Part shown: in pieces, positions 14,745-28,689 of the stretch | Layout: each line of letters begins with the position of its first letter | Numbering within the stretch: the first letter of the stretch is position 1 | Assembly: GCA_040772225.1 (NCBI GenBank) | Contig: JAXGYO010000004.1 | Span: 12,233 to 76,232, forward strand | DNA length: 64,000 nt | Direction of reading: 5' to 3' | Source of the DNA: Anaerolineae bacterium | Lineage (GTDB): Bacteria > Chloroflexota > Anaerolineae > UBA1429 | Translations under genes and position numbers: made by a program | Notes under the pieces: model-generated | What the model was told of the DNA's origin: nothing | The model's input: only the letters and a program-made list of their open reading frames with translations | Database searches by the model: none

Positions 14745-16658
14745 ATGTCCAAACCAGAACCCCTCGCCACGCCGCCGTCCCACGAGGAGCTGCGGCTGCA
14801 GCGCCTGCGCGCGCTGTACCCGGAACTCGACACCGAAGGCGGGCGCGTCGATCCCCAACGCCTGGCCGGCCTCATTCCAGGCGACTCGCTGGACCCCGGT
14901 CCCGAACGCTATGGCCTCTCGTGGAACGGCAAGCGCGCCGCCCAACAGGCCCTGGCGCTCGGTCCCACCGGCGCCCTGCGCCCCTGCCCGGAAGAGTCCC
15001 TGGACTGGGAGACCACGCGCAACGTCTTTATCGAGGGCGAGAACCTGGAGACGCTGCGCATCATGCTCAAGCCCTACTTTCGCAAGGTCAAGATGATCTA
15101 TATCGACCCGCCCTACAACACCGGCGGCGATTTCATCTACAAAGACAACTATACCGCGCCGGTGGCGGACTATCTGAAAAAGACGGGCCAGGCGGACGAG
15201 GCGGGCAACCTGCTGGTCTCGAACCCGGAGAGCTCGGGGCGCTACCACTCCGACTGGCTGACGATGATGTACCCCCGGCTGGCGCTGGCCCGCGAGCTGC
15301 TGCGCGAGGACGGCGTGCTCTTTTGCTCCATCGACGACCACGAGGTCCACAACCTGCGCCTGCTGCTCAACGAGGTGTTCGGGGAGGAGAACTTTGTCGC
15401 GGCAATCGCCTGGGAGCGGGCGGACAGCCCTCGGATGGATGCCGACTACTTCTCAACGAAGCACGAGTACGTGCTGTGCTGCGCCAGAAACCTGGCTGCG
15501 TTCAGAGTGATCCGGTCTGAGTACGAGGGAGAAGAAGTTCCCGATCACTACAATCGAGTGGATGGCCATGGTAGACGATACTATCTGAAGCCTCTTCGCG
15601 CGATGGGCGGACAGGGCGAGACTAGAGAAGCACGCCCCAACCTGTATTACGCGATCAGCGCACCGGACGGGAGCGAGGTATTCCCAAAGCTCGAGGACGG
15701 ACGCGATGGCGCCTGGAGGTGGGGCCAGGAGAAACTGGCTCGCGAGCGCGCAAGAATCGAGTGGACAGGGTCAGCATCCGAGTGGACGCCATATTACCGT
15801 ATCTACGCAGATGAGAGTCACGGCAGGCCCCCGGAGACCATGGTATTTGCGAAAGATGTAGGGAGCAACCGTACCGCCACGGCGGAACTGAAGGCCCTCT
15901 TCGATGAGGGTCGACCGTTTGACGCCCCGAAACCAGTCGGGCTCCTGAAGCACTTGGTCAGTATGGCATGCGATCCGGAATCGCTCGTACTCGATTTCTT
16001 CTCTGGCTCCGCCACCACGGCCCACGCCCTAATCGATCTTAACAACGCCGACGGCGGCAACCGGCGCTACATTCTTGTGCAGCTCCCTGAGCCGACTGAA
16101 CGCGAGGACTACCCCACCATCGCCGACATCGGCAAGGAGCGTATCCGGCGGGTGGCGGCGCGCATCCGCGAGGAGCGCGCGGGCCAGCTCGACCTGGAGC
16201 AGCGCGAGACGCCGCTGGACCTGGGGATGCGGGTGTTCAAGCTGGGCGCCAGCAGTCTTGCGGACAACAGGCACGAGGCGACCACGGAGGGTCGCCCCGA
16301 CCAGGACGGCGATTATGCCGCCGCACTGCAGGGCTCGCTGGACACGCTACTGCCCGATTGGCGCCCTGAGGACCTGCTGTGGGAGGTGCTCCTGAGAGAG
16401 GGGTTGCCGCTGGACTGCCGTATCGAGACACTGACCGCGGGTCCGCAGACGGTGTACCGCGCCACCGACCCCGACACGGACGGCGACGGCGCCGAGCGCC
16501 GTCTGTACGTCTGCCTGGACGACGCCGTGAGCGACGAGCCGCTGGTGGCCCTGCTGGGCGAGGACCGTAACGCCCGGCTGGTCTGCCGCGAGTCGGCGCT
16601 GGCCGACGACAGCGTGGCCCAGAACCTGGCGCTGCATTGCCGGCTGGTGACGCTGTGA
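14745..16658 (+). CDS. mod: Type III restriction-modification methyltransferase subunit
   Basis: ERYGLSWNGK, IYIDPPYNTG, HSDWLTMMYPRL, LDFFSGSATTAHA (beta-class m6A MTase), adjacent to res. Confidence 0.93.
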   Translation: MSKPEPLATPPSHEELRLQRLRALYPELDTEGGRVDPQRLAGLIPGDSLDPGPERYGLSWNGKRAAQQALALGPTGALRPCPEESLDWETTRNVFIEGENLETLRIMLKPYFRKVKMIYIDPPYNTGGDFIYKDNYTAPVADYLKKTGQADEAGNLLVSNPESSGRYHSDWLTMMYPRLALARELLREDGVLFCSIDDHEVHNLRLLLNEVFGEENFVAAIAWERADSPRMDADYFSTKHEYVLCCARNLAAFRVIRSEYEGEEVPDHYNRVDGHGRRYYLKPLRAMGGQGETREARPNLYYAISAPDGSEVFPKLEDGRDGAWRWGQEKLARERARIEWTGSASEWTPYYRIYADESHGRPPETMVFAKDVGSNRTATAELKALFDEGRPFDAPKPVGLLKHLVSMACDPESLVLDFFSGSATTAHALIDLNNADGGNRRYILVQLPEPTEREDYPTIADIGKERIRRVAARIREERAGQLDLEQRETPLDLGMRVFKLGASSLADNRHEATTEGRPDQDGDYAAALQGSLDTLLPDWRPEDLLWEVLLREGLPLDCRIETLTAGPQTVYRATDPDTDGDGAERRLYVCLDDAVSDEPLVALLGEDRNARLVCRESALADDSVAQNLALHCRLVTL

Positions 16659-17185
16659 TCGGGCGGGCGGCGCGTTTCTGGGCGACCACAGAGGGTGGTC
16701 CCTACGATGGGGTGCGGCGTGTCTCAGCCCCCGCCCCTGTCCCCTCCCCCGTTGACGGGGGAGGGGAACGCAACCGCAGGTTGCGCGGGGTGAGGGCGTT
16801 TGGCGCCGCCCATCCTATTCATCCTGTATATCGATTTTCGTTTTCCTGGGCTGACACGGTGGTCAGCCCCTACGATGGGGTGCGGCGTGTCTCAGCCCCC
16901 GCCCCTGTCCCCTCCCCCGTTGACGGGGGAGGGGAACGCAACCGCAGGTTGCGCGGGGTGAGGGCGTTTGGCGCCGCCCATCCTATTCATCCTGTATATC
17001 GATTTTCGTTTTCCTGGGCTGACACGGTGGTCAGCCCCTACGATGGGGTGCGGCGTGTCTCAGCCCCCGCCCCTGTCCCCTCCCCCGTTGACGGGGGAGG
17101 GGAACGCAACCGCAGGTTGCGAGGGGTGAGGGCCTGCCGGGCGGTGCCGCGCACCCGTCGCCCCAAAGGGCTGGTGACGCTGTGA
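16642..17185. repeat. Insert with 168-bp tandem repeat (about 2.6 copies) bounded by a 17-bp direct repeat GGCTGGTGACGCTGTGA
   Basis: TACGATGGGG recurs at 16703, 16871 and 17039; direct repeat at 16642-16658 and 17169-17185. Confidence 0.9.
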
Positions 17186-19959
17186 AACTGCGCTACGATC
17201 CCAATCTGGACTATCAGGTCGAGGCCGTCAACGCGGTGGCGGAGCTCTTTGCCGGCCAACCCTACGTCGAGGCGGGTGCACGGCAGGACCCCGGCGCCTG
17301 GCAAAGCGGCGCGGGCATGTTCGTCGTGGGAAACCGGCTGGACCTGCCGCCGGAGCAGTTACAGGCCAACCTGCATGAGGTACAGGCGGGTCAGAGCCTC
17401 TTTGCGGACGATGCGCTGCGAACGATCACCCAGGACGTGCATCTCGGCGCGCTGGACGGACCGGTCACCTTTTACAACTATGCCGTCGAGATGGAGACCG
17501 GCACCGGCAAGACGTATGTCTATCTGCGCACGGCGCTGGAGCTGGCCCGCCGCTATGGGCTGCGCAAGTACATCATCGTCGTGCCTTCGGTGGCCATCCG
17601 CGAGGGCGTGCTGAGCGCGCTTCGGGGCACCTACGACCACCTGAGCGCGCTGTTCGGCGGGCAGCCCTACGGCTATGGCGTGTATGACTCGGCCAACCTG
17701 GGCCGCGTCAAGGCCTTCAGCGAGTCGCGCCAGGTGGATATCCTGGTGATGACCCTGCAGTCCTTCAACACCGAGGACAATGTCATCCGCCGCGCGGCGG
17801 ACCGCTTCATGGGGCTGGAGCCCATCCGCCAGTTGCAGGCGGTGCGCCCGGTGCTGATCCTGGACGAGCCGCAGAACATGGAGTCAGAAAACAGCATCGC
17901 GGCGCTCGCGGCGCTCAATCCGCTCATGGCGCTGCGCTACAGCGCCACCCACCGCGACCCTTACAACCTCGTCTATCGCCTCACGCCGGCCGAGGCGCAC
18001 CGGCGACGGATCGTCAAGACCGTTCGCGTGGCGGGCGCGCGGCTGGCGGACGCCGATGACCTGCCCTACATCCAGGTCAACGCGATCCGCTCCGGCAAAA
18101 AGACCATCGAGGCCAGCCTGCGGCTCTCGGTGCTGGACAGCGACGGCGCCATCAACCTGAAGACGGTGACCGTGCGCCCGGGAGCGCGACTGGAGGAGCT
18201 CACTCACCGCAGCCTGTATGCCGGCCTGCGCGTGGAGGAGCTGGACCTGGGGGCCGGGGTGGTCCGCTTGAGCAGAGGCGTCACGATTCCGGTGGGCGAG
18301 GCCGTGGGCGATTATCACGAGGCCATCTTTCAGGCCCAGATCGAGGAGACCGTCGCCCGCCACCTGCGCAAACAGGAGGAGGTGCGCGGGCGGGGCATCA
18401 AGGTGCTTTCGCTCTTTTTCATCGATCGCGTCGCCAACTACTGGATGGAGGACGGCCAGACGCAAGCGCCGCTCATCCGCCGCCTCTTTGACGAGGCCTA
18501 TGAGCGACTGAAAGCCGGGTATGAGGCGTGGCGCGATCTATCGGCGCAGGATGTGCAGGCGGGCTATTTTGCCTCCAGCAGCAAGACCAGCCTCAACCCT
18601 GTGGACACCGGCGGGACGTCGCAGCGCGACCGCGACGCGTACGACCTGATCATGCGCGACAAAGAGCGGCTGCTCTCCTTTGACGATCCGCACGCCTTTA
18701 TCTTTACCCACTCGGCGCTCCGCGAGGGGTGGGACAACCCCAATGTGTTCCAGATCTGCACGCTCAACCAGACCGTGTCCACCGCGCGCAAGCGGCAGGA
18801 GATCGGGCGCGGCGTGCGCATACCCGTGGATCAGCAGGGCCAGCGCGTGTTCGACGAGCGACTCAACGTGCTCACGGTGGTGGCTAACCAGTCGTACCGG
18901 GCCTTTGTGGCCGAGTACCACGACGAGGTGCTGGCCGCCAGCCGGACACAGATTCAGGCGCACTATGGCGTGCCACCGGAGGAGCTGAGCGAGGCGCAGC
19001 GCGAGGAGGCGGCGCGCCTCTACGGCGCGGAGGCCGCCCCGGCGCCGGAGGACGCCCGTGACGAGATCAGGGTGACGCTCCGCAGCGAGCGCTACGAGTC
19101 GGCTGACTTTCAGGCGCTTTGGAACGCCATCGCCGCCAAAGCGCGCTACCGGGTGCGCATCGACACCGAGGCGCTTGTGTCGCGGGTGTTGGCGCGCTAC
19201 GCAGAGCTGCGGGTGAGCGCCCCGCAGGTCGTCGTCGAGTACGGCCACCTCATCGGCGAGGACGGCAAGCCCGGGCTCCAGAGCGGCGAGGGAACAACGG
19301 TCACCGTTGGCCCGCCGCGCGAGCGACCCAACCTGCTGCTCCTCGTGAGTGAGATGCTGGCCGCCAGCACGCCGCCGCTGCGCATCACGCGCCGGACCAT
19401 CCTGCGCATCCTCCAGTCGCTGCCGGAGGCCATCCGAGAGGGGATGGCGGTCAATCCCACGGCCTTTGCCACGGCCCTGACACGGGTCCTGGCGGAGGAG
19501 TTGCGCCGCGAGATGGTCCACGAGATCAGCTATGTGCCGACGGGTGAGGCGTGGGACCGCGCCAAACTCGAAGAGAGCTTTGAGCGGCTGCAGCGCGCGC
19601 TCGAACCCAGCGCGGGCAAGGCCCTGTACGACCACGTCGACGTGGACTCGGAGATCGAGCGGCAAGTCGCGCGGGCGCTGGAGGCGCACGAACGGGTGCG
19701 GCTGTATCTCAAGCTGCCGCGCTGGTTCCAGGTGGCCACCCCTTACGGCGGCTACGCCCCCGACTGGGCCATCCTCGTCGAGCGCGACGGCGGAGCGGAC
19801 TGCGTGAAACTGATCCGCGAGACCAAGGCCAGCGCGAGCAGCGAGGACCTGCGGGGCCGGGAGGCGGCAGCCATCGCCTGCGGCCGCGAGCATTTCCGGG
19901 CGCTGGGCGTCGAGTACGCCGTGGCAACCGGGCCGGAGAGCCTGCGGCTGGAAGGGTAG
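17182..19959 (+). CDS. res: Type III restriction endonuclease subunit
   Basis: VEMETGTGKTYVY, ILDEPQ, LRYSATH, LREGWDNPNVFQIC, QEIGRGVR, C-terminal PDWA...ETK nuclease. Confidence 0.93.
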   Translation: MKLRYDPNLDYQVEAVNAVAELFAGQPYVEAGARQDPGAWQSGAGMFVVGNRLDLPPEQLQANLHEVQAGQSLFADDALRTITQDVHLGALDGPVTFYNYAVEMETGTGKTYVYLRTALELARRYGLRKYIIVVPSVAIREGVLSALRGTYDHLSALFGGQPYGYGVYDSANLGRVKAFSESRQVDILVMTLQSFNTEDNVIRRAADRFMGLEPIRQLQAVRPVLILDEPQNMESENSIAALAALNPLMALRYSATHRDPYNLVYRLTPAEAHRRRIVKTVRVAGARLADADDLPYIQVNAIRSGKKTIEASLRLSVLDSDGAINLKTVTVRPGARLEELTHRSLYAGLRVEELDLGAGVVRLSRGVTIPVGEAVGDYHEAIFQAQIEETVARHLRKQEEVRGRGIKVLSLFFIDRVANYWMEDGQTQAPLIRRLFDEAYERLKAGYEAWRDLSAQDVQAGYFASSSKTSLNPVDTGGTSQRDRDAYDLIMRDKERLLSFDDPHAFIFTHSALREGWDNPNVFQICTLNQTVSTARKRQEIGRGVRIPVDQQGQRVFDERLNVLTVVANQSYRAFVAEYHDEVLAASRTQIQAHYGVPPEELSEAQREEAARLYGAEAAPAPEDARDEIRVTLRSERYESADFQALWNAIAAKARYRVRIDTEALVSRVLARYAELRVSAPQVVVEYGHLIGEDGKPGLQSGEGTTVTVGPPRERPNLLLLVSEMLAASTPPLRITRRTILRILQSLPEAIREGMAVNPTAFATALTRVLAEELRREMVHEISYVPTGEAWDRAKLEESFERLQRALEPSAGKALYDHVDVDSEIERQVARALEAHERVRLYLKLPRWFQVATPYGGYAPDWAILVERDGGADCVKLIRETKASASSEDLRGREAAAIACGREHFRALGVEYAVATGPESLRLEG

Positions 19960-20054: not shown

Positions 20055-20891
20055 CTACACCGTCCAGGTGATCAGCGCTGAACGCATCGAGGGCGGCCAC
20101 ACGAACTGCCCGCCGTCCCAGGTCAGCCGCTCGGTGAGCAAGCCCCGCAGGTAGTCGTCGTGCTCCGATGGCCCGTGCAGGCCCAGCTTGCGTTTGGTTT
20201 CGTCCAGCGCCTCTTCGATGGACGCGTTCTTCCACTCGCCCCAGGCGCCGGTGTTTTCCATCAGCACGTCGGGGAAAATGCCCATCTGCACGAGCGCGTT
20301 GTAGGCGATGGTCCCGTTAGGGCTGTCGTGCGGCTGGCCCCAGACCCGCATGGCCGCATCCGCCATGACGCCATCGGGCAGCGGCATGCGCACCAGCAGG
20401 CAGACCCGCCGCCGGGTGACGTCCAGAATGCGCCGCACAAAGTGCGGGAAATCGGGATAGCCGTACATGGCGTGTGCGCACAGCGTCACGTCATGTGGCT
20501 CTACCACGGCATCGGGCCATCCGCCGTACACCACCGAGACATTATCGAGTTCCCAGGAGGCGACATTCTCCTGAAGCACCTCCAGCATCGCTCTGGAAGG
20601 ATCGACGGCCGTCACGTGCCTGGCCTTTTGCGCCAGCAGCAACGTCCACGACCCGGTCCCCGCGCCGATGTCCAGCACGGTGGTGTCGCCATCCACCTGG
20701 CTCTGCACATAGTCGCGGCTGGAATCGGGACGGGCCCAGCGCCGCAGGACGCGCTCGTGAAACTGCCTCGCGCGTTCGCGCCAGGCATCGCCCTCTCCCG
20801 CATTGATCGTCGTCGGCTCCGGTGCGTGCGGGTCCTTGCGCGCCTCCGCAAGCTGTCGCCAGAGGCGGATGTAGTCAGTGATGGGTTCCAT
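20055..20891 (-). CDS. Class I SAM-dependent methyltransferase
   Basis: VLDIGAGTG and VTAVDPS..ML motifs; co-oriented downstream of the ABC genes. Confidence 0.85.
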   Translation of the reverse strand: MEPITDYIRLWRQLAEARKDPHAPEPTTINAGEGDAWRERARQFHERVLRRWARPDSSRDYVQSQVDGDTTVLDIGAGTGSWTLLLAQKARHVTAVDPSRAMLEVLQENVASWELDNVSVVYGGWPDAVVEPHDVTLCAHAMYGYPDFPHFVRRILDVTRRRVCLLVRMPLPDGVMADAAMRVWGQPHDSPNGTIAYNALVQMGIFPDVLMENTGAWGEWKNASIEEALDETKRKLGLHGPSEHDDYLRGLLTERLTWDGGQFVWPPSMRSALITWTV

Positions 20892-20902
20892 GTCTGCTCC
20901 AG

Positions 20903-20968
20903 TATTTCAGATTTCAGATTGCAGATTGCAAATCTAGGATTCTAGATGGCAGAGTGCAGATGCCAGAC
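20903..20968. repeat. 7-bp tandem repeats (CAGATTT/CAGATTG type) downstream of the four-helix-bundle gene
   Basis: ATTTCAGATTTCAGATTGCAGATTGCAAATCTAG...; inverted counterpart at 21552-21600. Confidence 0.75.
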
Positions 20969-20989
20969 GAAAGTGGTGTCTGTAATGCT

Positions 20990-21436
20990 TTAGCTGGGAT
21001 CGGATGGTTGTTCGATTACTGGCGATTGTATGTCATACTCGGCTAACGACTCTGCCAGTCTGTGGCCATCCGGACGAGAGTGCAGGTACGCGATGAACCC
21101 GTGCAACTGGCGGCTGCAGCTCCGCGCGGACTCTGAGACCTCATCAAGGGTCTCCTGGCTGATATAGCCAGCGTCCAGGGCGACATACAACTGCGCACGG
21201 ACTTCGCCCGCCGAGCCCTTTGCATAGCCGAGATACCGCTGGAACTGGGACGGACTGTCGCTCTCAAAGCCCTCGGCGATGTTGGACATGATGGAAACGG
21301 CCGATCGGCGAATCTGGTCACGCAGCCCATAGTCCCTTGACCACATGGATTCGCCAGTCAGTTCATAAACCCTGCGCGTGAGCAGGCGTGCGGTGACCCA
21401 AACGGGCAAATCCTCAAACTGCCGTATCGCTGCCAT
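20990..21436 (-). CDS. Four-helix-bundle protein (23S rRNA IVP / Avd-like family)
   Basis: FEDLPVW, DYGLRDQIRRSAVSIMSNIAEGF, YAKGSAGEVRAQLYVALDAGYI. Confidence 0.92.
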   Translation of the reverse strand: MAAIRQFEDLPVWVTARLLTRRVYELTGESMWSRDYGLRDQIRRSAVSIMSNIAEGFESDSPSQFQRYLGYAKGSAGEVRAQLYVALDAGYISQETLDEVSESARSCSRQLHGFIAYLHSRPDGHRLAESLAEYDIQSPVIEQPSDPS

Positions 21437-21551
21437 GTTCCCCCCTTTGGATGCTGCGCATCCCTGCTATTCATCCCCGCAGATGGCTTGAGACTGATCC
21501 GTGCTGCTGTGCGGCTTGACGAGCATTGTAGCAAGCCCGGTCGCCCAGTCG

Positions 21552-21600
21552 TAATCTCCCATCTGCCATCTGTAATCTGCAATCTGCAATCTGCGATCCG
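21552..21600. repeat. 7-bp tandem repeats (AATCTGC type) upstream of the four-helix-bundle gene
   Basis: CATCTGCCATCTGTAATCTGCAATCTGCAATCTGCGATCC. Confidence 0.75.
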
Positions 21601-21608
21601 CGCCCCCC

Positions 21609-22388
21609 TCACTCATGCACCATCACCATCTTGCGGCCTTCGACGTCGACGACCTGCACGGGGACGTCATAGGTGGCAGTGAGGAGTTTGCTGGTCATGA
21701 CCTCCGCGACGGGACCGTGGGCGATGACGCGCCCGTTGCGCATGAGCAGCACATGGGTAGCGATGGCGGTGGCGGCGTTGGGGTCGTGGGTGGTCCACAG
21801 GATGGTGCGCCCCTGGCTGCCCAGCGAGCGCATCACACCCAGCACGCGCCGGGCATTGGCCAGGTCCAGGTGCGAAGTGGGCTCATCCAGCAGCATCACC
21901 TCGGGCGCCTGCGTCAGGGCACGGGCCACCGTCGCGAGTTGCTTTTCGCCGCCGCTAAGCGACGTCACCGGACGGTGCGCCAGCGCCGCAATGCCCACGC
22001 TCTCCAGCGCCGACTGCGCCACGGCGCGGTCCTCCTCGCGCGGCAGCGACAACAGGTTCAGATAGGGGGCGCGGCCCAGGAGCGCGTACTCGAACACGTT
22101 CAGCTCAAAGGTGACGTGCTCGTCCTGGGGCACCAGCCCCATGATCTGGCTCAGCTCGCGCCGGCTGAACCCGTGCTGCGCGCGGCCGCCCACATGCACC
22201 GCGCCCGATTCCGGCTGCAGCAGCCCCAGCAGCACGTGCATCAGCGTGGACTTGCCGGACCCGTTGGGCCCCAGGATGGCGGTGATGCTGCCGGATCCGA
22301 TGGCGGCGGTCACGGCGTCGAGCGCGGGCTGGCCCTCGGGCACGTAGCGAAACGTCACCTGACGGATATCGATGGCCGGTGGTGTCAT
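21609..22388 (-). CDS. ABC transporter ATP-binding subunit (FecE/BtuD/MolC-like)
   Basis: GPNGSGKST, LSGGEKQ, LLDEPTSHLD, THDPN. Confidence 0.92.
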   Translation of the reverse strand: MTPPAIDIRQVTFRYVPEGQPALDAVTAAIGSGSITAILGPNGSGKSTLMHVLLGLLQPESGAVHVGGRAQHGFSRRELSQIMGLVPQDEHVTFELNVFEYALLGRAPYLNLLSLPREEDRAVAQSALESVGIAALAHRPVTSLSGGEKQLATVARALTQAPEVMLLDEPTSHLDLANARRVLGVMRSLGSQGRTILWTTHDPNAATAIATHVLLMRNGRVIAHGPVAEVMTSKLLTATYDVPVQVVDVEGRKMVMVHE

Positions 22389-22398
22389 GATCGTGCCC

Positions 22399-23433
22399 TC
22401 ACCGGCGCATCCCCGTGCCATCGCGGATCATCAGCGCCATAAAGATCGCCGCACCGAGCATCGACGTGAGAATACCCAGCGGCAGCTCACCCGTGAGGGC
22501 CGTGCGCGCGATGTCATCGCAAAAAAGGGTGAACACGGCGCCCAACAGCATGGCGCCGGGCAGCGCGCGCTGCGCATCAGAACCCACCCAGCGGCGCGCG
22601 ATATGCGGCACGATCAGCCCCACCCAGCCGATCAGGCCCGTCTTGGACACCACCGCGGCCGTGGCGAGCACCGCCGCCAGGAGCAGCACCAGGCGCTCCC
22701 GGCCCGCGGAGACGCCGAGCGAGTAGGCCGTCTCATCCCGCAGTGAGAGCAGATTAAGCCGCCAGCGCAGCAGCAGGATGACCAGCAGACAGGGCAACAC
22801 GACAGGTGCGATCTGCAGGATATCGGCCCAGGTGAGGCTCCAGAGGCCGCCCAGCATCCAGAAGGTGATCTCAGGAAGCTGCCGCAGCGGGTCGGCGGCG
22901 TACTTGAGCAGGCTGGTCCCCGAGGAGTACAACGCTGACACGGCGATACCGGCCAGCACCAGGCGCAGCACCCAATCCCCATAGCGGATCCGGGTGCCGA
23001 GCATGTAGGAGCTCACGAGGCCAAGGACGCCAAAGAAAGCCGCCGCCAGCTGGATGGTGAGCGGCGCGCCGCCCAGCGCCACGATGGCCAGCGAGGCGCC
23101 GAAAGAGGCGCCGGCGGAAACCCCCAGGAATCCAGAGTCCACCAGCGGGTTGCGAAAGATCATCTGAAAGCACACGCCCGAGGCGGCCAGCACCATGCCC
23201 ACCATCACGGCGCCCAGGATCCGCGGGAGGCGCAGATTCAGCACCAGCCGTTGCGCCAGCGGGTCGTCTGTGATCGCCGAGAGGGGCGTCCAGTATGGCC
23301 CGGGATAGCGCCCCAGAAAGAGTGACACGCCCGCCAGCGCCAGCAGCGCGATCGCCAGGATCGCCACACGCCGGCGACCCTGGCGTTCCTGCTCAGAAAC
23401 CCCGGGCAGTGGCTCCCTGCTGAGCTCAGTCAA
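22399..23433 (-). CDS. ABC transporter permease (FecCD/BtuC/MolB-like)
   Basis: LRLPRILGA, QMIFRNPLVD..FLGVSAGA, IGWVGLIVPHIAR, ELPLGILT. Confidence 0.92.
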   Translation of the reverse strand: MTELSREPLPGVSEQERQGRRRVAILAIALLALAGVSLFLGRYPGPYWTPLSAITDDPLAQRLVLNLRLPRILGAVMVGMVLAASGVCFQMIFRNPLVDSGFLGVSAGASFGASLAIVALGGAPLTIQLAAAFFGVLGLVSSYMLGTRIRYGDWVLRLVLAGIAVSALYSSGTSLLKYAADPLRQLPEITFWMLGGLWSLTWADILQIAPVVLPCLLVILLLRWRLNLLSLRDETAYSLGVSAGRERLVLLLAAVLATAAVVSKTGLIGWVGLIVPHIARRWVGSDAQRALPGAMLLGAVFTLFCDDIARTALTGELPLGILTSMLGAAIFMALMIRDGTGMRR

Positions 23434-24940
23434 CGTTCATCTCGAGCCGCGGCAGGATATGCGCGTCAAAGGCGGCACTATCCATCCCGTACATGTCACC
23501 AAACCAGGACCGCACGACAGCGTCCATGTCGATAGCATGAGGGGCGCCTTCTCCGAACAGGTCGGGATGCAAGCGTGTGGCCAGCCACTGCACGCCCAAA
23601 ATCCAGCGCGGCTCGGGCTGGTCCCAGCCAAAGACATCCCGCGGAAAGGCGTACAGCTCGTCATTCTGCACCGCCTGCAGTGCCGACCAGTTCTCATCTG
23701 CCTTGAGACCGTCGATCACCTCGCGCGGCTGCAGATCGTGGTCAACAATGACGAACAGCTTTTCGGGGTTCCATTGCGCGATCTGCTCAAAGTTTGTCAC
23801 CGTCCAGCCGTCGGTGGGCGCCGCGGCGTTCAGCCAGACAGCCTCGCCGCCGGCACGTACGACCTCAGCCGTCTGCATCCAGGCGCCGGCCGGAACCTTG
23901 ACGGCAATCTCGCCGCCGCGGCTGCTGTACGAAACCAGCAGCGTCCGCGGCTTGCTGGCGACATCCGCCAGCCCGGCGTCGATCTTGTCAAGCGCGCCCT
24001 GGTACCAGGCGGCGATCTCCTCGGCTCGGCCGGGGTTACCCAGCACGGCGCCGATATTGGCCAGATCGGTAAAGAAGGCGTCCATGCTCTCAAGATTGAC
24101 ATACAGGTAGGGAATCCCCGCCTCTGTCAGTCCCTTACCCGTTTCGTTCTCGATGATCCCCTTCATGATCACCAGGTCGGGCGCCATGGTAGCGATCTGC
24201 TCCACGTTCGGGTTCGCCGCCGTGGTCGGCACGCTATCAAAGACGGGGTCCACCATGGGGAGGAACTCGCTGGCGGTGGCAGCCCGCGATTCGGTCGCAG
24301 TCAGCCGCTCCCGGCCCTCCTCGAACATGTAGAGGATATGCAATGTCATGTGCGGCCCGGTTCCCACGACCATGATGCGGCCCGGCAGCGCGTCGAGCGT
24401 GACCGTACGGCCGGCAGCGTCCGTGAGCGTGAGGGGCTCATCCAGTGCGATGGGTTCGATACCCTGGGGGGCAGCCGATGTATCAGCCGCCTCCGGGCCC
24501 ACGATCTCCGCCACGTCCCGCACCCAGGTGCTCTTGGCCAGCGTGGGGATCAGGGCATCCAGCGTGCCCTCGTCCGAGTAGCCGAGCACGGCGGTGCCGT
24601 CCAATTCGGCAATGGTTACATTGGCGGAGTAGCCATCGCTGGCCACCAGGGATACCGTCTCGGGAAGTGTGCCGCCGCCGGCGTCTGCCGCGTCATTGAG
24701 CAGCGCCAGCAAACCAACCCCTGTAGCGGTGCGGTCGCCGGATGTGGCCGTCACCTGTTCCAGGGCCTGGAGATCGGCCAGCGCATAATCCACACCCAGA
24801 GCGGTGATGACGGTAGCCCCAGTAACACCGGCATCAACCTCAGCCACGGGCGCAACCGTCTCGGCAGACTGGCAGGCGGAGATCAGCAGGACGAACAACA
24901 AGAGGGTACTCAGAAGTAATCGAGAGGTTCGAGCTGACAC
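23426..24940 (-). CDS. ABC substrate-binding lipoprotein (class III, Peripla_BP_2) with an extra N-terminal sulfite-oxidase-like domain
   Basis: Lipobox LISAC; N-terminal domain with LVASDGYSA...WVRDV; then TDAAGRTVTL, NVEQIATMAPDLV, AVQNDELY, WLATRLHPDLF. Confidence 0.85.
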   Translation of the reverse strand: MSARTSRLLLSTLLLFVLLISACQSAETVAPVAEVDAGVTGATVITALGVDYALADLQALEQVTATSGDRTATGVGLLALLNDAADAGGGTLPETVSLVASDGYSANVTIAELDGTAVLGYSDEGTLDALIPTLAKSTWVRDVAEIVGPEAADTSAAPQGIEPIALDEPLTLTDAAGRTVTLDALPGRIMVVGTGPHMTLHILYMFEEGRERLTATESRAATASEFLPMVDPVFDSVPTTAANPNVEQIATMAPDLVIMKGIIENETGKGLTEAGIPYLYVNLESMDAFFTDLANIGAVLGNPGRAEEIAAWYQGALDKIDAGLADVASKPRTLLVSYSSRGGEIAVKVPAGAWMQTAEVVRAGGEAVWLNAAAPTDGWTVTNFEQIAQWNPEKLFVIVDHDLQPREVIDGLKADENWSALQAVQNDELYAFPRDVFGWDQPEPRWILGVQWLATRLHPDLFGEGAPHAIDMDAVVRSWFGDMYGMDSAAFDAHILPRLEMNVD

Positions 24941-25041
24941 GGTAGCAGTTCCTTCCTGATGAGTGTTCAGGAAAGGAAAAGAGGCGACGTCAGGCCGTAG
25001 AGCCGCGGGGGGTAATGCAAGCTCTCAGCGAAACATGCGCC

Positions 25042-25166
25042 ACCTTTCCTTTCCAAGCGCGGGAGGCGCCGGGGTTTCCCCCTGCACCCTTGAAGCAAAG
25101 CCGTAAGGCTTTGCTCGTCGGCCGCGCGCCATGCTTTGCAGTTTAGGACACGCGGCTCGAAAAGGT
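25042..25166 (-). ncRNA. Moco (molybdenum cofactor) riboswitch, copy 1
   Basis: Minus strand CCTTTTCGAGC...CCTAA...AGCAAAGCC-TTAC-GGCTTTGCT (P3)...AGGGTGC.GGGGGAAACCCC.GCGCCTCCCGCGCTTGGAAAGGAAAGG fits the Moco RNA consensus (CGAG, CCUAA, GGGU, GAAA loop, GCCUCCC, UGGAAAGG). Confidence 0.8.
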
Positions 25167-25239
25167 GGTCTCTATTGATTAGCCAAACTATACGATGACC
25201 GGGCAACACGTCAAGCACTGCGCCCGGCGCAGCATCAGC

Positions 25240-25725
25240 CTACTTGGCGCTGATGCTGACGACGTCGTCAACCCACGCGCTCTTGGCGACGGTGGGAATG
25301 ATCGCGTTGAGCTTGCCGTCCTCAACTACTAGAACCGCGGTGTCGTCGATCTCGGCCACGGTCACGTCAGCGGAATACCCATCGGACGCCACCAGGCTGA
25401 TCGTCTCTGCAGTAACTCCGGCGGCCTCCAGAACGGCCATCAGGCTGATACCGGTCACGTCCCCATCTTCAGTACTGGCGGTGGCTGTGGCAAGTGCCTC
25501 GAGCTCGGCCATACTGAAAGCCTTACCGGCGACCGTGAGCGCGGAGTCAGCGGCCGCCTCGGAGGCTGCGACTTCGTTCGCATCCTTGGTCTTGGCGCTC
25601 TCAATCAGAGCCTGAGCCGCAGGCGATGTGGCGGTGGCCCCGCCGTCGCCCGAGCAGGCCACCAGGGCGAGGGACAGCAGCATGAGGGCAACAACGAGCA
25701 AAGTGATAGTACGGGACTTGAACAC
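25240..25725 (-). CDS. Lipoprotein with a stand-alone sulfite-oxidase-like (Cys-less) domain
   Basis: GTG start after AAAGGAG; lipobox LVAC; TGISLMAVLEAAG...ISLVASDGYSADV...IIPTVAKSAWVDDV, clearly paralogous to the SBP N-terminal domain. Confidence 0.75.
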   Translation of the reverse strand: MFKSRTITLLVVALMLLSLALVACSGDGGATATSPAAQALIESAKTKDANEVAASEAAADSALTVAGKAFSMAELEALATATASTEDGDVTGISLMAVLEAAGVTAETISLVASDGYSADVTVAEIDDTAVLVVEDGKLNAIIPTVAKSAWVDDVVSISAK

Positions 25726-25821
25726 AGGTCTCCTTTCGCGGTCACGGATCATGTTATCGGGGATAGGGGCGCGGCGATGGCCCATAGAGGCAGATTACCC
25801 TGAAAGCCCATCGGTGCGCTT

Positions 25822-25942
25822 GCCTTTCCTTTCCATGGTGGGAGGCATCCGGGTTTCCCGGGACACCCTCGGCAGCGACAACCTAGCGCTGCGCCGGCGG
25901 TCAGGCCCTGTCATACGAATTAGGCCCAATCGCTCGAAAAGA
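25822..25942 (-). ncRNA. Moco riboswitch, copy 2
   Basis: Minus strand CTTTTCGAGC...GGCCTAA...GCAGCG-N-CGCTGC (P3)...AGGGTGTCCCGGGAAACCCGGATGCCTCCCACCATGGAAAGGAAAGG. Confidence 0.8.
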
Positions 25943-26193
25943 CATCAACGCGAACACAGCGAGTATAGCCGCAGCTTTTACATCCGTCAAATGGCGGACT
26001 CGCCGTCCGCGCTGGCGTGTTCACTCATCAAAAACCTGACTTTTGCTGGTCGAATCCGCCGGCTGACCAATGCCGGGTCGCGAGTCATCACATATATCAC
26101 AGTACCTTGCTCTATTCTACTAGGTATCGGGCGCCACGGCGAGCGCTCTTTGGTCGCCCTTGCAGCCAACAGCGTTGGTAACGGGGAGGTGCC

Positions 26194-26751: not shown

Positions 26752-27333
26752 ATGACAATCGATGACCCGTCCGCGGTATCGCCGGGCGAGATCTGCGACC
26801 TGCTTACGACCCTGCCCTCCGGCCGTCGCTGGCTCGGCATCCTCACAGGGTGGCGCGGCAGAGGCAAGACCACGTGGTGCAGCGCCCTCGCGAGTGTAGC
26901 CCGCGCGCGCGGCCTCGCCGTCGCCGGCCTGCTCTCACCGGGCATCTTTGACACGAACAGCCTGCCGGTGGCGGAGCGCATCAAGCTCCGCATCGATCTG
27001 GTTGACCTGGCGACGGGATACAGCCGGGTCCTGGCGACGCCCGGCGACCCCCATGCGGAGGGGCACGGGATGCGCTGGCACTTTATCCAGGAGACGATCG
27101 CGTGGGGCAATGCGGCCCTGTCATCGGCGGACGCCGCGGACCTGGTCATCATCGATGAGCTGGGCCCCCTGGAGCTGACCCACGGCCGTGGCCTGACTGC
27201 CGGTGTCGAACTGCTCGACGAGCACAGGTATTCCTGCGCCGTGGTCGTCATCCGGCCCGAACTGGTCGCGCAAGCGCAGGCGCGCTGGCCCGAGGCGGTC
27301 GTGCTTACGGTGCCGGCATGGGACGACGAATGA
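26752..27333 (+). CDS. Nucleoside triphosphatase (THEP1/DUF2478-like)
   Basis: Walker A ILTGWRGRGKTT, VAGLLSPG, LVIIDELGPLE. Confidence 0.8.
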   Translation: MTIDDPSAVSPGEICDLLTTLPSGRRWLGILTGWRGRGKTTWCSALASVARARGLAVAGLLSPGIFDTNSLPVAERIKLRIDLVDLATGYSRVLATPGDPHAEGHGMRWHFIQETIAWGNAALSSADAADLVIIDELGPLELTHGRGLTAGVELLDEHRYSCAVVVIRPELVAQAQARWPEAVVLTVPAWDDE

Positions 27334-27526: not shown

Positions 27527-27910
27527 CGTTGTTTCTCTTCCATCCAGAGACCGCGCAAGGCCTTGCGCAGATTCCGAAAAGCGTGCGTTTGCAGCGCGCG
27601 GGTGGCTTGAGCCGATCGGCCGAGGTACTCTGCCACCTGATTATGGGACCAGTCCTCCAGAAAACGGAGCTCCACCACGGTGCGCTGCTCCTCGGGCAGC
27701 CCCAAAAGGGCGCGGCGCAGTTGCTCCTGCCTCTGATGCTCCAGAAGGGCACGCTCAGGATCAGCTTCCCCTGCGGAAGGCCAGTCGTCGTCGATGGCTT
27801 CAGTCTGCCGGTGCGTCCGGTAGTGATCCACCTCCCGGTTATGCGCCGTGCGGTACAGATAGGCCCGCACATTGCCGCTGAGCAACCGGTGCCTCACCAC
27901 CTTCAGCAGC
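27490..27910 (-). pseudogene. 5'-truncated ECF sigma factor
   Basis: End of region 2 (RAYLYRTAHNREVDHYR) and region 4 (LPEEQRTVVELRFLEDWS..VAEYLGRS..ATRALQ) are present; the N-terminus is replaced by a tandem repeat. Confidence 0.75.
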
Positions 27911-28062
27911 CGGCCCTGGAGCGCCGGCCCTGGAGCGCCGGCCCTGGAGCGCCGGCCCTGGAGCGCCGGCCCTGGAGCGCCGGCCCTGGAGCGGCCCCTG
28001 GAGCGCCGGCCCTGGAGCGCCGGCCCTGGAGCGCCGGCCCTGGAGCGCCGGCTTTAGCCGGT
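27909..28062. repeat. 14-bp tandem repeat GCCGGCCCTGGAGC (about 10 copies) ending in REP GGAGCGCCGGCTTTAGCCGG
   Basis: Directly visible; abuts the RAYT2 stop codon. Confidence 0.88.
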
Positions 28063-28689
28063 ATCCCCTCCCCTCGTTCGCGTCCCGTCCTGCTGATCCT
28101 GTGTCAGGAGCGCATGGAACATCGAATCTACCGTCTCCACGCGCCTCGCACTCCCAAACCGCCACTCCCGCGGGTCTGACACCAATCCAGCCTTGACCGG
28201 ATTGTTGTGCACATAAAGCACCGCGCGCTGGAGATGATTCTCATCCCGAATGTACCGGTCATAATACTCCCGCGCCCAAACGCCGCCCTGTCGCCCCAAC
28301 ACGAGGTTAGCTTGCCTCGCTGTGCCACCTTTCCAGCTCTGCAGGATGCGCGCCAGCGACCACTCGCCCAGCGCTTCGATCAGAACGTGGACATGATTGG
28401 GCATCACCACCCATGCCAGGAGCACGTACCGGGAACCATCACCAGCCAGTAGCGCCTCCTCGACCACCTCCGCCACGCGCGGATCCCTCAGAAGGCAAGA
28501 GCCCGCACCTGCGTCCATCAGGCGTTGGGCACGCGCTCGCCCGGACACGTCTGCCTCGCCCTCGGAGGCCATCAGAGAAAGCAGAGCAGCCGGGAGACTG
28601 TCCACCAGGCGGAAGGTAATGGCCTGGATCAGCCCCGGCTCATCGCGGTGCGGCAGACGGCGGCGGTACCAGCCCTTGTGCTCTGTCAT
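28054..28689 (-). mobile_element. REP-associated tyrosine transposase (RAYT), copy 2
   Basis: RRLPHRDEPG, ITFRLVDSLP, VVMPNHVH, WAREYYDRYIRD, YVHNNPVKAGLV; close paralog of copy 1. Confidence 0.9.

Follow-up and report, generated by a model that had tools for sequence, protein, structure and literature searches.

A 64,000-nucleotide stretch of the genome of an Anaerolineae bacterium (Chloroflexota; assembly GCA_040772225.1, contig JAXGYO010000004.1, positions 12,233 to 76,232), here called the window, carries a minus-strand locus in which one molybdenum cofactor (Moco) riboswitch precedes the gene of a small surface lipoprotein and a second precedes an operon for a substrate-binding protein (SBP), a permease and an ATPase of the ATP-binding cassette (ABC) type. 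We propose, at a probability of roughly 55%, that this locus is a salvage system for the molybdenum/tungsten pyranopterin cofactor (Moco, the tungsten cofactor Tuco, or a close metal-loaded derivative), which would be switched off by the cofactor inside the cell. The proposal draws on sequence comparison and on analogy with known uptake systems, and it is from these that we infer Moco or Tuco as the substrate. Import of cofactor appears more probable for a clade of riboswitch-controlled relatives in genomes devoid of Moco synthesis genes, the auxotroph clade, than for the window locus itself.

The regulatory elements were identified with the Rfam covariance models. Scanning the whole 64-kb window with cmscan gave two matches above the gathering score, both to RF01055 and both on the minus strand. 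The aptamer at 25810-25951 scored 64.9 bits (E 2.4e-13) and the aptamer at 25030-25175 scored 67.8 bits (E 3.5e-14), each over the full length of the model (1-135) and well above the gathering score of 36 bits, which confirms the two Moco-motif RNAs that a first reading of the sequence alone had recognized. The P3 stem, given by Regulski 2008 as the mark of the Moco class and as absent in the Tuco class, is paired in the alignments of both aptamers to the Rfam model. In the SBP leader, the 3′ strand of P1 (GGAAAGGAAAGG) is able to pair with a downstream pyrimidine stretch (CCUCUUUUCCUUUCC), which pairs alternatively with the Shine-Dalgarno (SD) region (AGGAAGGAA) upstream of the SBP GTG start. 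The predicted anti-sequestor hairpin has a free energy of -52.4 kcal/mol (z -3.73, with 0 of 200 shuffles as good), and the SD-sequestor hairpin one of -18.2 kcal/mol (z -2.54). From these two mutually exclusive predicted hairpins we infer that the leader is laid out as a translational OFF switch. Folding of 25715-25840 in the lipoprotein leader gave z -0.66 and no significant alternative fold. Of the two remaining Moco riboswitches of the genome, one controls a mogA-moeA-moeA-moaA-moaC-MOSC operon and the other a TupB-ATPase-TupA operon; since these govern Moco synthesis and TupABC, the locus belongs to a Moco-starvation regulon. The features of the locus are collected in Table 1.

Table 1. 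Features of the riboswitch-controlled locus and adjoining genes, in window coordinates
Feature	Position	Strand	Description
Moco riboswitch aptamer 1	25810-25951	-	Leader of small lipoprotein gene; RF01055, P3 present
Moco riboswitch aptamer 2	25030-25175	-	Leader of transporter operon; RF01055, P3 present
Expression platform, riboswitch 2	24930-25060	-	Two alternative hairpins before SBP GTG start
Surface lipoprotein, 161 aa from GTG	25240-25725	-	Sec/lipobox signal (LVAC), low-complexity linker, one PruR-like Cys-less domain of sulfite oxidase (SUOX) fold
Lipoprotein SBP, 504 aa	23426-24940	-	PruR-like domain and class III (PF01497) SBP core
N-terminal PruR-like domain of SBP	24503-24814	-	SBP residues 43-146
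Type II ABC importer permease (FecCD/BtuC family)	22399-23433	-	NCBIfam BtuC 1.8e-53, FecC 8.7e-50
ABC ATPase	21609-22421	-	NCBIfam heme/corrinoid/FecE-type, E 1e-57 to 7e-64
Four-helix-bundle protein	20990-21436	-	TIGR02436, 107 bits against cut-off 24; between ATPase and methyltransferase genes
Class I SAM (S-adenosylmethionine)-dependent methyltransferase	20055-20891	-	Last operon gene; weak generic methyltransferase matches
P-loop NTPase (PRK13695-like)	26752-27333	+	Divergent from lipoprotein riboswitch; NF010248, E 1.8e-9

A FecCD-family permease, an ABC ATPase and a PF01497 SBP together in one operon make up a type II ABC importer set, and the family matches of all three proteins agree with the FecCD/BtuCD-type importer read earlier from the sequence. 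The NCBIfam matches of the permease and the ATPase all lie below the curated cut-offs. PF01497 was found in 72 of 72 SBP homologues among the matches listed. Searched against the Protein Data Bank (PDB), the SBP profile matched 4ovk (E 1.3e-35), as well as 4hn9, 4pag and 4mo9, and the molybdate/tungstate-binding MolA (3psa, E 4.6e-20). With the AlphaFold2 (AF2) model of the SBP, whose predicted local distance difference test (pLDDT) score was 81.9, Foldseek placed 4hn9, 4ovk and 4pag first and MolA at rank 6 (E 5.9e-17). Three uncharacterised SBPs (4ovk, 4hn9 and 4pag) are closer to the window protein than MolA is, and the profile match to MolA falls mainly in the C-terminal lobe (query 375-483), with a weak stretch besides. 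The SBP is more distant from BtuF of the B12 importer, for which the profile gave E ~2e-5, compared with the 1e-35 reached by the uncharacterised SBP nearest to it.

The lipoprotein open reading frame (ORF) extends over 25240-25785, and translation most likely starts at the GTG at 25725, which follows AGGAG and marks the position at which 15 of 15 lipoprotein homologues begin (VFKSR/MFKTR). Residues 81-178 of the lipoprotein are 50% identical to residues 43-146 of the SBP (E 3e-25), so that the repetition of the lipoprotein domain at the SBP N-terminus, suspected from the sequence, is borne out. Each protein has a sole Cys, C44 in the lipoprotein (numbered on the long ORF) and C23 in the SBP, and both are the lipobox Cys; the domain is indeed Cys-less, as had been claimed. 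In the AF2 model of the lipoprotein, 93 residues have a pLDDT of at least 90, and the means of 10-residue blocks range from 88 to 95 over residues 81-170. Foldseek with this model returned PruR chains at ranks 1-7 (E 1e-4 to 9e-4; structures 7kp2, 7kos, 7kom and 7rkb among the top matches), then SorT and sulfite oxidases at a probability of 0.93-1.0. Sequence profile A2 matched PruR 7kom (E 8e-5) and 7kos (E 6e-4), and PF00174 occurred together with PF01497 on 11 of 72 SBP homologues among the matches listed. On all these counts the sulfite-oxidase-like fold put forward by the sequence-only reading stands.

The motif D102-G103-Y104 of the SBP is invariant in 24 of 24 aligned homologues, and D135-G136-Y137 of lipoprotein-family profile A1 aligns with PruR N102-x-Y104, which reads N-D-Y. 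According to PMC11194511, PruR N102 and Y104 touch the pterin ring in the neopterin complexes, and the pterin-contact residues comprise N102, Y104 and W160, plus a PW motif. No PW motif was present in the lipoprotein-family profile when aligned to PruR. Lipoprotein W171 and SBP W138 lie outside the alignment at a distance from the C-terminus like that of PruR W160, a position that Q or R occupies in some relatives. The Cys-bearing hairpin of SUOX enzymes is shortened in the lipoprotein domain, even more than in PruR, and a Mo-ligating Cys of the sulfite oxidase type is missing from both proteins, since neither has a Cys outside the lipobox. A Cys-less SUOX/PruR-type fold on Sec-type lipoproteins points to an extracellular, non-catalytic binder, which is what sequence and model predict the duplicated domain to be.

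PruR, known from Agrobacterium, Vibrio and Klebsiella, likewise represents a branch of the SUOX fold that is small, secreted and devoid of Cys, and the N/D-x-Y pterin-contact motif seems to be retained in the present domain. Unlike PruR, the present domain is ~100 aa long rather than ~140 aa, is lipid-anchored, fused to an SBP or arranged in tandem, stands under Moco riboswitches, and has ABC importer genes as partners in place of a DcpA-type protein. As the best structural match, PruR, is a binder of small pterins, we considered uptake or sensing of a pterin other than Moco (monapterin or neopterin type), or of a precursor or breakdown product of Moco (cyclic pyranopterin monophosphate, cPMP, or Form A). 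The PruR cleft is described in PMC11194511 as too short for Moco, which would suit such a ligand, as would the even shorter Cys-hairpin found here. We nevertheless rate this explanation as very improbable, given the control by Moco riboswitches, the missing DcpA-like partner and PW motif, and the existence of carrier genomes without MoeA and MoaE, which would be unable to finish cPMP or molybdopterin (MPT) into Moco.

To follow the system beyond the window, one genome per species was scanned; 298 relatives of the SBP were found, and 80 loci were kept. A covariance model, R1, was built from 20 aptamers (alignment A4); a regular-expression screen for aptamers gave fewer sites than R1 and was dropped as a count. 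R1 matched strongly at 24 of the 80 loci, and 23 of these 24 matches lie upstream of an operon with an SBP of the family. The Rfam model agrees at 12 of the R1 loci (L010, L017, L028, L030, L034, L037, L040, L041, L043, L053, L061 and L078). The loci pairing riboswitch and SBP span Chloroflexota, Aminicenantes, Acidobacteriota, Thermodesulfobacteriota and others, so that the neighbourhood of riboswitch and importer is kept across phyla (23 loci of 80). Riboswitch-controlled SBPs with the N-terminal PruR-like domain (N-domain) come from Chloroflexota, and those without it from Aminicenantes, Acidobacteriota, Thermodesulfobacteriota and metagenome-assembled genomes labelled Eubacteriales. A permease homologue lies directly 3′ of the SBP gene in 69 of 80 loci, and an ATPase was found in 63 of 80.

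In a tree of the 80 SBP cores, built by a quick method and rooted at the midpoint, a branch with support 100 divides the family into two halves. The window SBP shares its half with every N-domain riboswitch locus and with the auxotroph riboswitch clade, and in the other half riboswitches are nearly absent. SBP members without a riboswitch have XdhA-type enzymes, XdhC, MoeA, MocA and YqeC as neighbours, and these molybdenum-related genes tie the whole SBP family to molybdenum metabolism. Two relatives have doubled aptamers. At L079, tandem Moco aptamers (19-149 and 212-349) precede one SBP gene, and at L014 a divergent pair (2075-2204 on the minus strand and 2340-2547 on the plus strand) is flanked by three N-domain SBP genes, in an operon that also holds an XdhC-like gene. 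Among three other genomes of the genus of the window's organism (G118, G181 and G290), the SBP family was found only in G118, and G181 has a tandem-domain lipoprotein only; with the family in one of three, the importer is accessory within the genus.

The strongest argument for a finished cofactor as cargo comes from genomes that lack the early genes for making one. Moco synthesis genes were surveyed in 50 genomes carrying the SBP family, with an E of 1e-20 or better required for MoeA. Matches over the cut-off were obtained for moaA in 30 of the 50 genomes and for moaC in 30 of the 50. Both genes were absent from 18, MoeA was absent as well from 15 of these 18, and MoaE was found in none of the 18 (0/18). 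One of them, G023, is a complete chromosome of 4.07 Mb. All ten riboswitch loci whose SBP has no N-domain (10/10) are in genomes without moaA, moaC and moeA, compared with 8 of 40 other genomes without moaA and moaC, a comparison in which relatives are not independent. The combination is also found with the N-domain: the SBP at L010, 61% identical to the window SBP, possesses the domain and is encoded in a genome without moaA, moaC and moeA. AOR-family genes are nonetheless retained in 17 of the 18 genomes without moaA and moaC, and XDH-family genes in 13 of the 18.

Five of these genomes (G023, G025, G037, G047 and G048) were checked closely. TupA and ModA were each found in 0 of 5, and the search with TIGR00177 gave only a CinA-like match below the cut-off. 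All five have MocA-like genes and four of the five have XdhC-like chaperones; in three genomes the one gene adjoins the other. This loss of early steps, with late steps and enzymes kept, is by analogy the signature expected of a salvager. In the absence of MPT synthesis and MoeA, free oxyanion would be useless to those cells. Relatives under the same riboswitch that lack moaA, moaC, moeA and moaE and keep Moco/Tuco enzymes thus lend strong indirect support to the import of intact Moco or MPT that the sequence-only reading had suggested. That part of the suggestion is strengthened, and its extension to the window locus is qualified below.

In the auxotroph genomes another Moco riboswitch stands directly before the gene of a TonB-dependent receptor. 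All five such receptors scanned (5/5) score 84-106 bits with models of TonB-B12 or heme receptors, and three additional genomes have, at four places, similar N-termini. At L061 and L078 a single operon contains, behind one riboswitch, the receptor gene, an NTPase gene and the SBP-permease-ATPase set. This organization resembles that of vitamin B12 uptake by BtuB-BtuFCD under cobalamin riboswitches. In both, a riboswitch for the finished cofactor governs, at our loci by predicted repression, a type II importer with its class III SBP and a TonB-dependent receptor (here, in the diderm relatives), and both occur in producers as well as in auxotrophs with late steps only. The present system differs in that the riboswitch is RF01055, the inferred cargo is Moco/Tuco, and the monoderm members add PruR-like capture domains.

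Receptors and importers of this kind classically carry metal chelates, and we weighed whether the cargo could be chelated or complexed molybdenum or tungsten (metallophore-bound, or thiomolybdate) and not a pterin cofactor. The FecCD/FhuD-type machinery fits such a role, and the Foldseek neighbours of the SBP include CeuE, YiuA and FeuA, which are siderophore and Ni-His binding proteins. Genomes without MoeA and MPT synthesis, however, could not use the metal, and no metallophore synthesis genes were seen adjoining the loci, so that this explanation, a shade more probable than that of a small pterin, is still improbable.

The least probable explanation, in our estimate, is an importer of iron or siderophores whose only tie to Moco/Tuco is co-regulation. 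The NCBIfam matches of the SBP, to binding proteins for heme, siderophores and B12, are weak, and its named homologues carry the label iron complex transport SBP in the source databases. Iron uptake is also how the authors of PMC11725836 read fetABC1/2 of Eubacterium limosum, two 'Fe ABC-type' transporters behind Tuco riboswitches. In these, as at our locus, an iron-type ABC importer is preceded by a pyranopterin riboswitch; unlike the window aptamers, the riboswitches are without P3. It is the only printed association of such a riboswitch with an 'Fe ABC-type' transporter that we found; in the main text of Regulski 2008 the words 'siderophore' and 'iron' occur only in the reference list, which holds an FhuD structure paper. 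Against iron stand the molybdenum-related neighbours (XdhA-type enzymes, XdhC, MoeA, MocA and YqeC) and the OFF logic, which would raise iron uptake only at low Moco; moreover, iron offers no rationale for the PruR-like fusion or for the pattern of auxotrophy.

Several observations weigh against cofactor import, and most of them concern the window's own organism. In its genome (G000), 99.65% complete, a single operon under a riboswitch (G000:C2:1036199-1041137; L005:5199-10137) holds moaA, moaC, mogA, a MOSC-domain gene and two genes for MoeA, and TupABC is riboswitch-controlled as well, so that cofactor uptake is not required by its gene content. It is not an obvious auxotroph, and MolA, a binder of molybdate and tungstate, is the nearest characterised relative of its SBP core; for the window locus these two points leave the suggested import of intact Moco or MPT only partly upheld. 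In the class Anaerolineae as a whole, moaC was absent from 11 of 60 genomes with the SBP family against 26 of 291 (Fisher p 0.04, relatives not independent), and riboswitches are wholly absent from four high-quality Anaerolineae genomes that carry the family and lack moaA and moaC. Across the class, then, possession of the SBP family is only weakly linked to loss of moaC, and the strong signal is confined to the riboswitch-controlled half of the quick tree. In the auxotrophs, the receptor riboswitches are without P3 (L105, L098 and L102) and the importer riboswitches have it (L093 and L108; genomes G023, G047 and G025), a split that is odd for two steps of one pathway and perhaps a sign that the cells sense a Tuco pool as well as a Moco pool. 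Finally, free Moco is held to be very labile (PMC9026282).

The distribution of the PruR-like domain bears on the same question. The domain was found in 23 of 151 class genomes. In L124, L128 and L134 it forms the C-terminal part of TupA-type SBPs, and an atlas lead lists ModA-type fusions as well. Lipoproteins with at least two tandem PruR-like domains occur at L133, L135, L138, L139, L141, L147 and L149 (seven proteins scanned), and many of the tandem-domain and TupA-fusion proteins stand behind Moco riboswitches. Occurrence on TupA-type SBPs and on tandem lipoproteins behind Moco riboswitches marks the domain as a general Mo/W-acquisition module, and the tandem-domain and TupA-fused proteins look like an undescribed surface family for Mo/W acquisition in Chloroflexota. 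The domain may accordingly bind either a pterin cofactor or an oxyanion, and may serve oxyanion capture. Thus, of the earlier argument from a SUOX-like domain to a pterin binder, the fold has held, and the step to the ligand is weakened by fusions to SBPs of an oxyanion type.

These considerations lead to the alternative that we regard as unlikely, yet clearly more probable than the others: a type II importer of free molybdate or tungstate like MolABC (HI1470-72) of Haemophilus influenzae, with the PruR-like domains acting as extra surface oxyanion binders and the whole forming a second route beside TupABC. MolABC belongs to the same importer class, handles Mo/W and has the closest characterised SBP, as judged from both the profile and Foldseek. 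The fusions to TupA-type SBPs fit the alternative too, the window's own genome can use the oxyanion (mogA and moeA are present), and in auxotrophs without ModA and TupA the family importer could be the only importer of the metal. MolA nonetheless has no PruR-like domain, and its similarity to the window SBP is concentrated in one lobe, with three uncharacterised SBPs closer; the MolA oxyanion contacts are given as K221, R264, Y114 and Y301 in a preprint (bioRxiv 10.64898/2026.10.15.759412). In the literature accessible to us we found no report of riboswitch control of MolABC. A TonB-dependent receptor under the same riboswitch would be unusual for a small oxyanion. Above all, many carriers of the present family cannot use the free oxyanion: the 15 of 50 that lack moaA, moaC, moeA and moaE have no pterin to load, yet keep a riboswitch-controlled importer. 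It is on this account that we favour salvage of the Mo/W cofactor.

If the locus does salvage Moco or Tuco, its operation may be pictured as follows. When Moco is scarce, both riboswitches would leave their genes translatable. The surface lipoprotein and the N-domain of the SBP, Cys-less and PruR-like, and possibly remnants of a Moco-binding fold, would capture the ligand outside the cell and pass it on to the class III SBP core, in a presumed relay from which the BtuCD-type permease and the ATPase would bring it into the cell. In diderm relatives the riboswitch-controlled TonB-dependent receptor would perform the capture instead. The window organism, with most of the synthesis genes, would probably use import as a supplement, much as B12 producers import B12.

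One gap in the synthesis genes of the window's organism deserves separate mention. Its genome gave no match to MoaE or MoaD, and a tblastn search of it with the MoaE ORFs of related Chloroflexota likewise gave none. The idea that the importer fills this gap was rejected: among class genomes with moaC, MoaE is missing from 12 of 40 with the SBP family and from 20 of 40 without it. Absence of MoaE (32 of 80 class genomes with moaC) is, on this comparison, a trait of the lineage, unlinked to the importer. Lineages without MoaE may have an unknown or highly divergent MPT synthase, for which the MOSC gene is a candidate.

The remaining genes in and beside the operon differ in how far they follow the importer. 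Homologues of the four-helix-bundle gene were found in 0 of the 80 related loci, and the gene is an insertion specific to the window's genome, outside the system. The methyltransferase recurs, at 44-76% identity, in 23 of the 80 loci, mostly directly after the ATPase gene, and the auxotroph riboswitch clade is without it; family and PDB searches gave no informative relative of this protein. Homologues of the PRK13695-like NTPase were detected by tblastn in 13 of 80 loci, in 10 of the 13 directly after the ATPase gene. At L061 such an NTPase (NF010248, E 6.5e-15) is encoded between the receptor gene and the SBP gene of the riboswitch-controlled operon, and at L078 a gene of the same cluster occupies that position; no PDB relative of the NTPase was found. 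Further out, a 925-aa ORF at 17182-19959 on the plus strand adjoins the operon, and its translation looks, by eye, helicase-like or restriction-subunit-like. A unit of ~55 aa is repeated three times in the ORF translation at 16637-17185 (plus strand), and short repeated ERRPWSAGPGAPAL units appear in ORF translations near 27872-28165; both suggest tandem repeats in the DNA. At 28054-28689 (minus strand) lies an ORF whose N-terminus may resemble that of a REP-associated tyrosine transposase.

Searches of the accessible literature, main texts only, found no published bacterial Moco importer; what comes nearest is the pair of E. limosum transporters read as iron uptake. Caenorhabditis elegans, by dietary uptake, also gains finished Moco from other organisms; unlike the present case it concerns an animal, and protein-bound Moco is the form proposed to be taken up. 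According to PMC9026282, the rule that Moco has to be made de novo knows no exception other than C. elegans. We see an even chance, judging from the sequence comparisons, that the systems described here would be the first case of a dedicated route by which bacteria take up the finished Mo/W pyranopterin cofactor, comprising a Moco/Tuco-riboswitch regulon for a BtuCD-type importer, a new subfamily of TonB-dependent receptors in diderms and Cys-less PruR-like capture domains in monoderm Chloroflexota.

Were this so, the view, as expressed in PMC9026282, that every Moco-using cell has to make Moco de novo on account of its lability would be overturned for microbes, and it would be explained how genomes with AOR and XDH enzymes can do without moaA, moaC and moeA. 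An annotation rule would follow by which Moco transporters could be told from iron and B12 importers, and the SBP, the receptor and the PruR-like domain would become candidate binders or stabilisers of Moco, of relevance to work on Moco deficiency. Moco auxotrophy and cross-feeding would be common in uncultured anaerobes (Aminicenantes, Acidobacteriota, Thermodesulfobacteriota and Anaerolineae), and Moco, or a stabilised form of it, would be an exchanged public good like B12 that shapes anaerobic communities.

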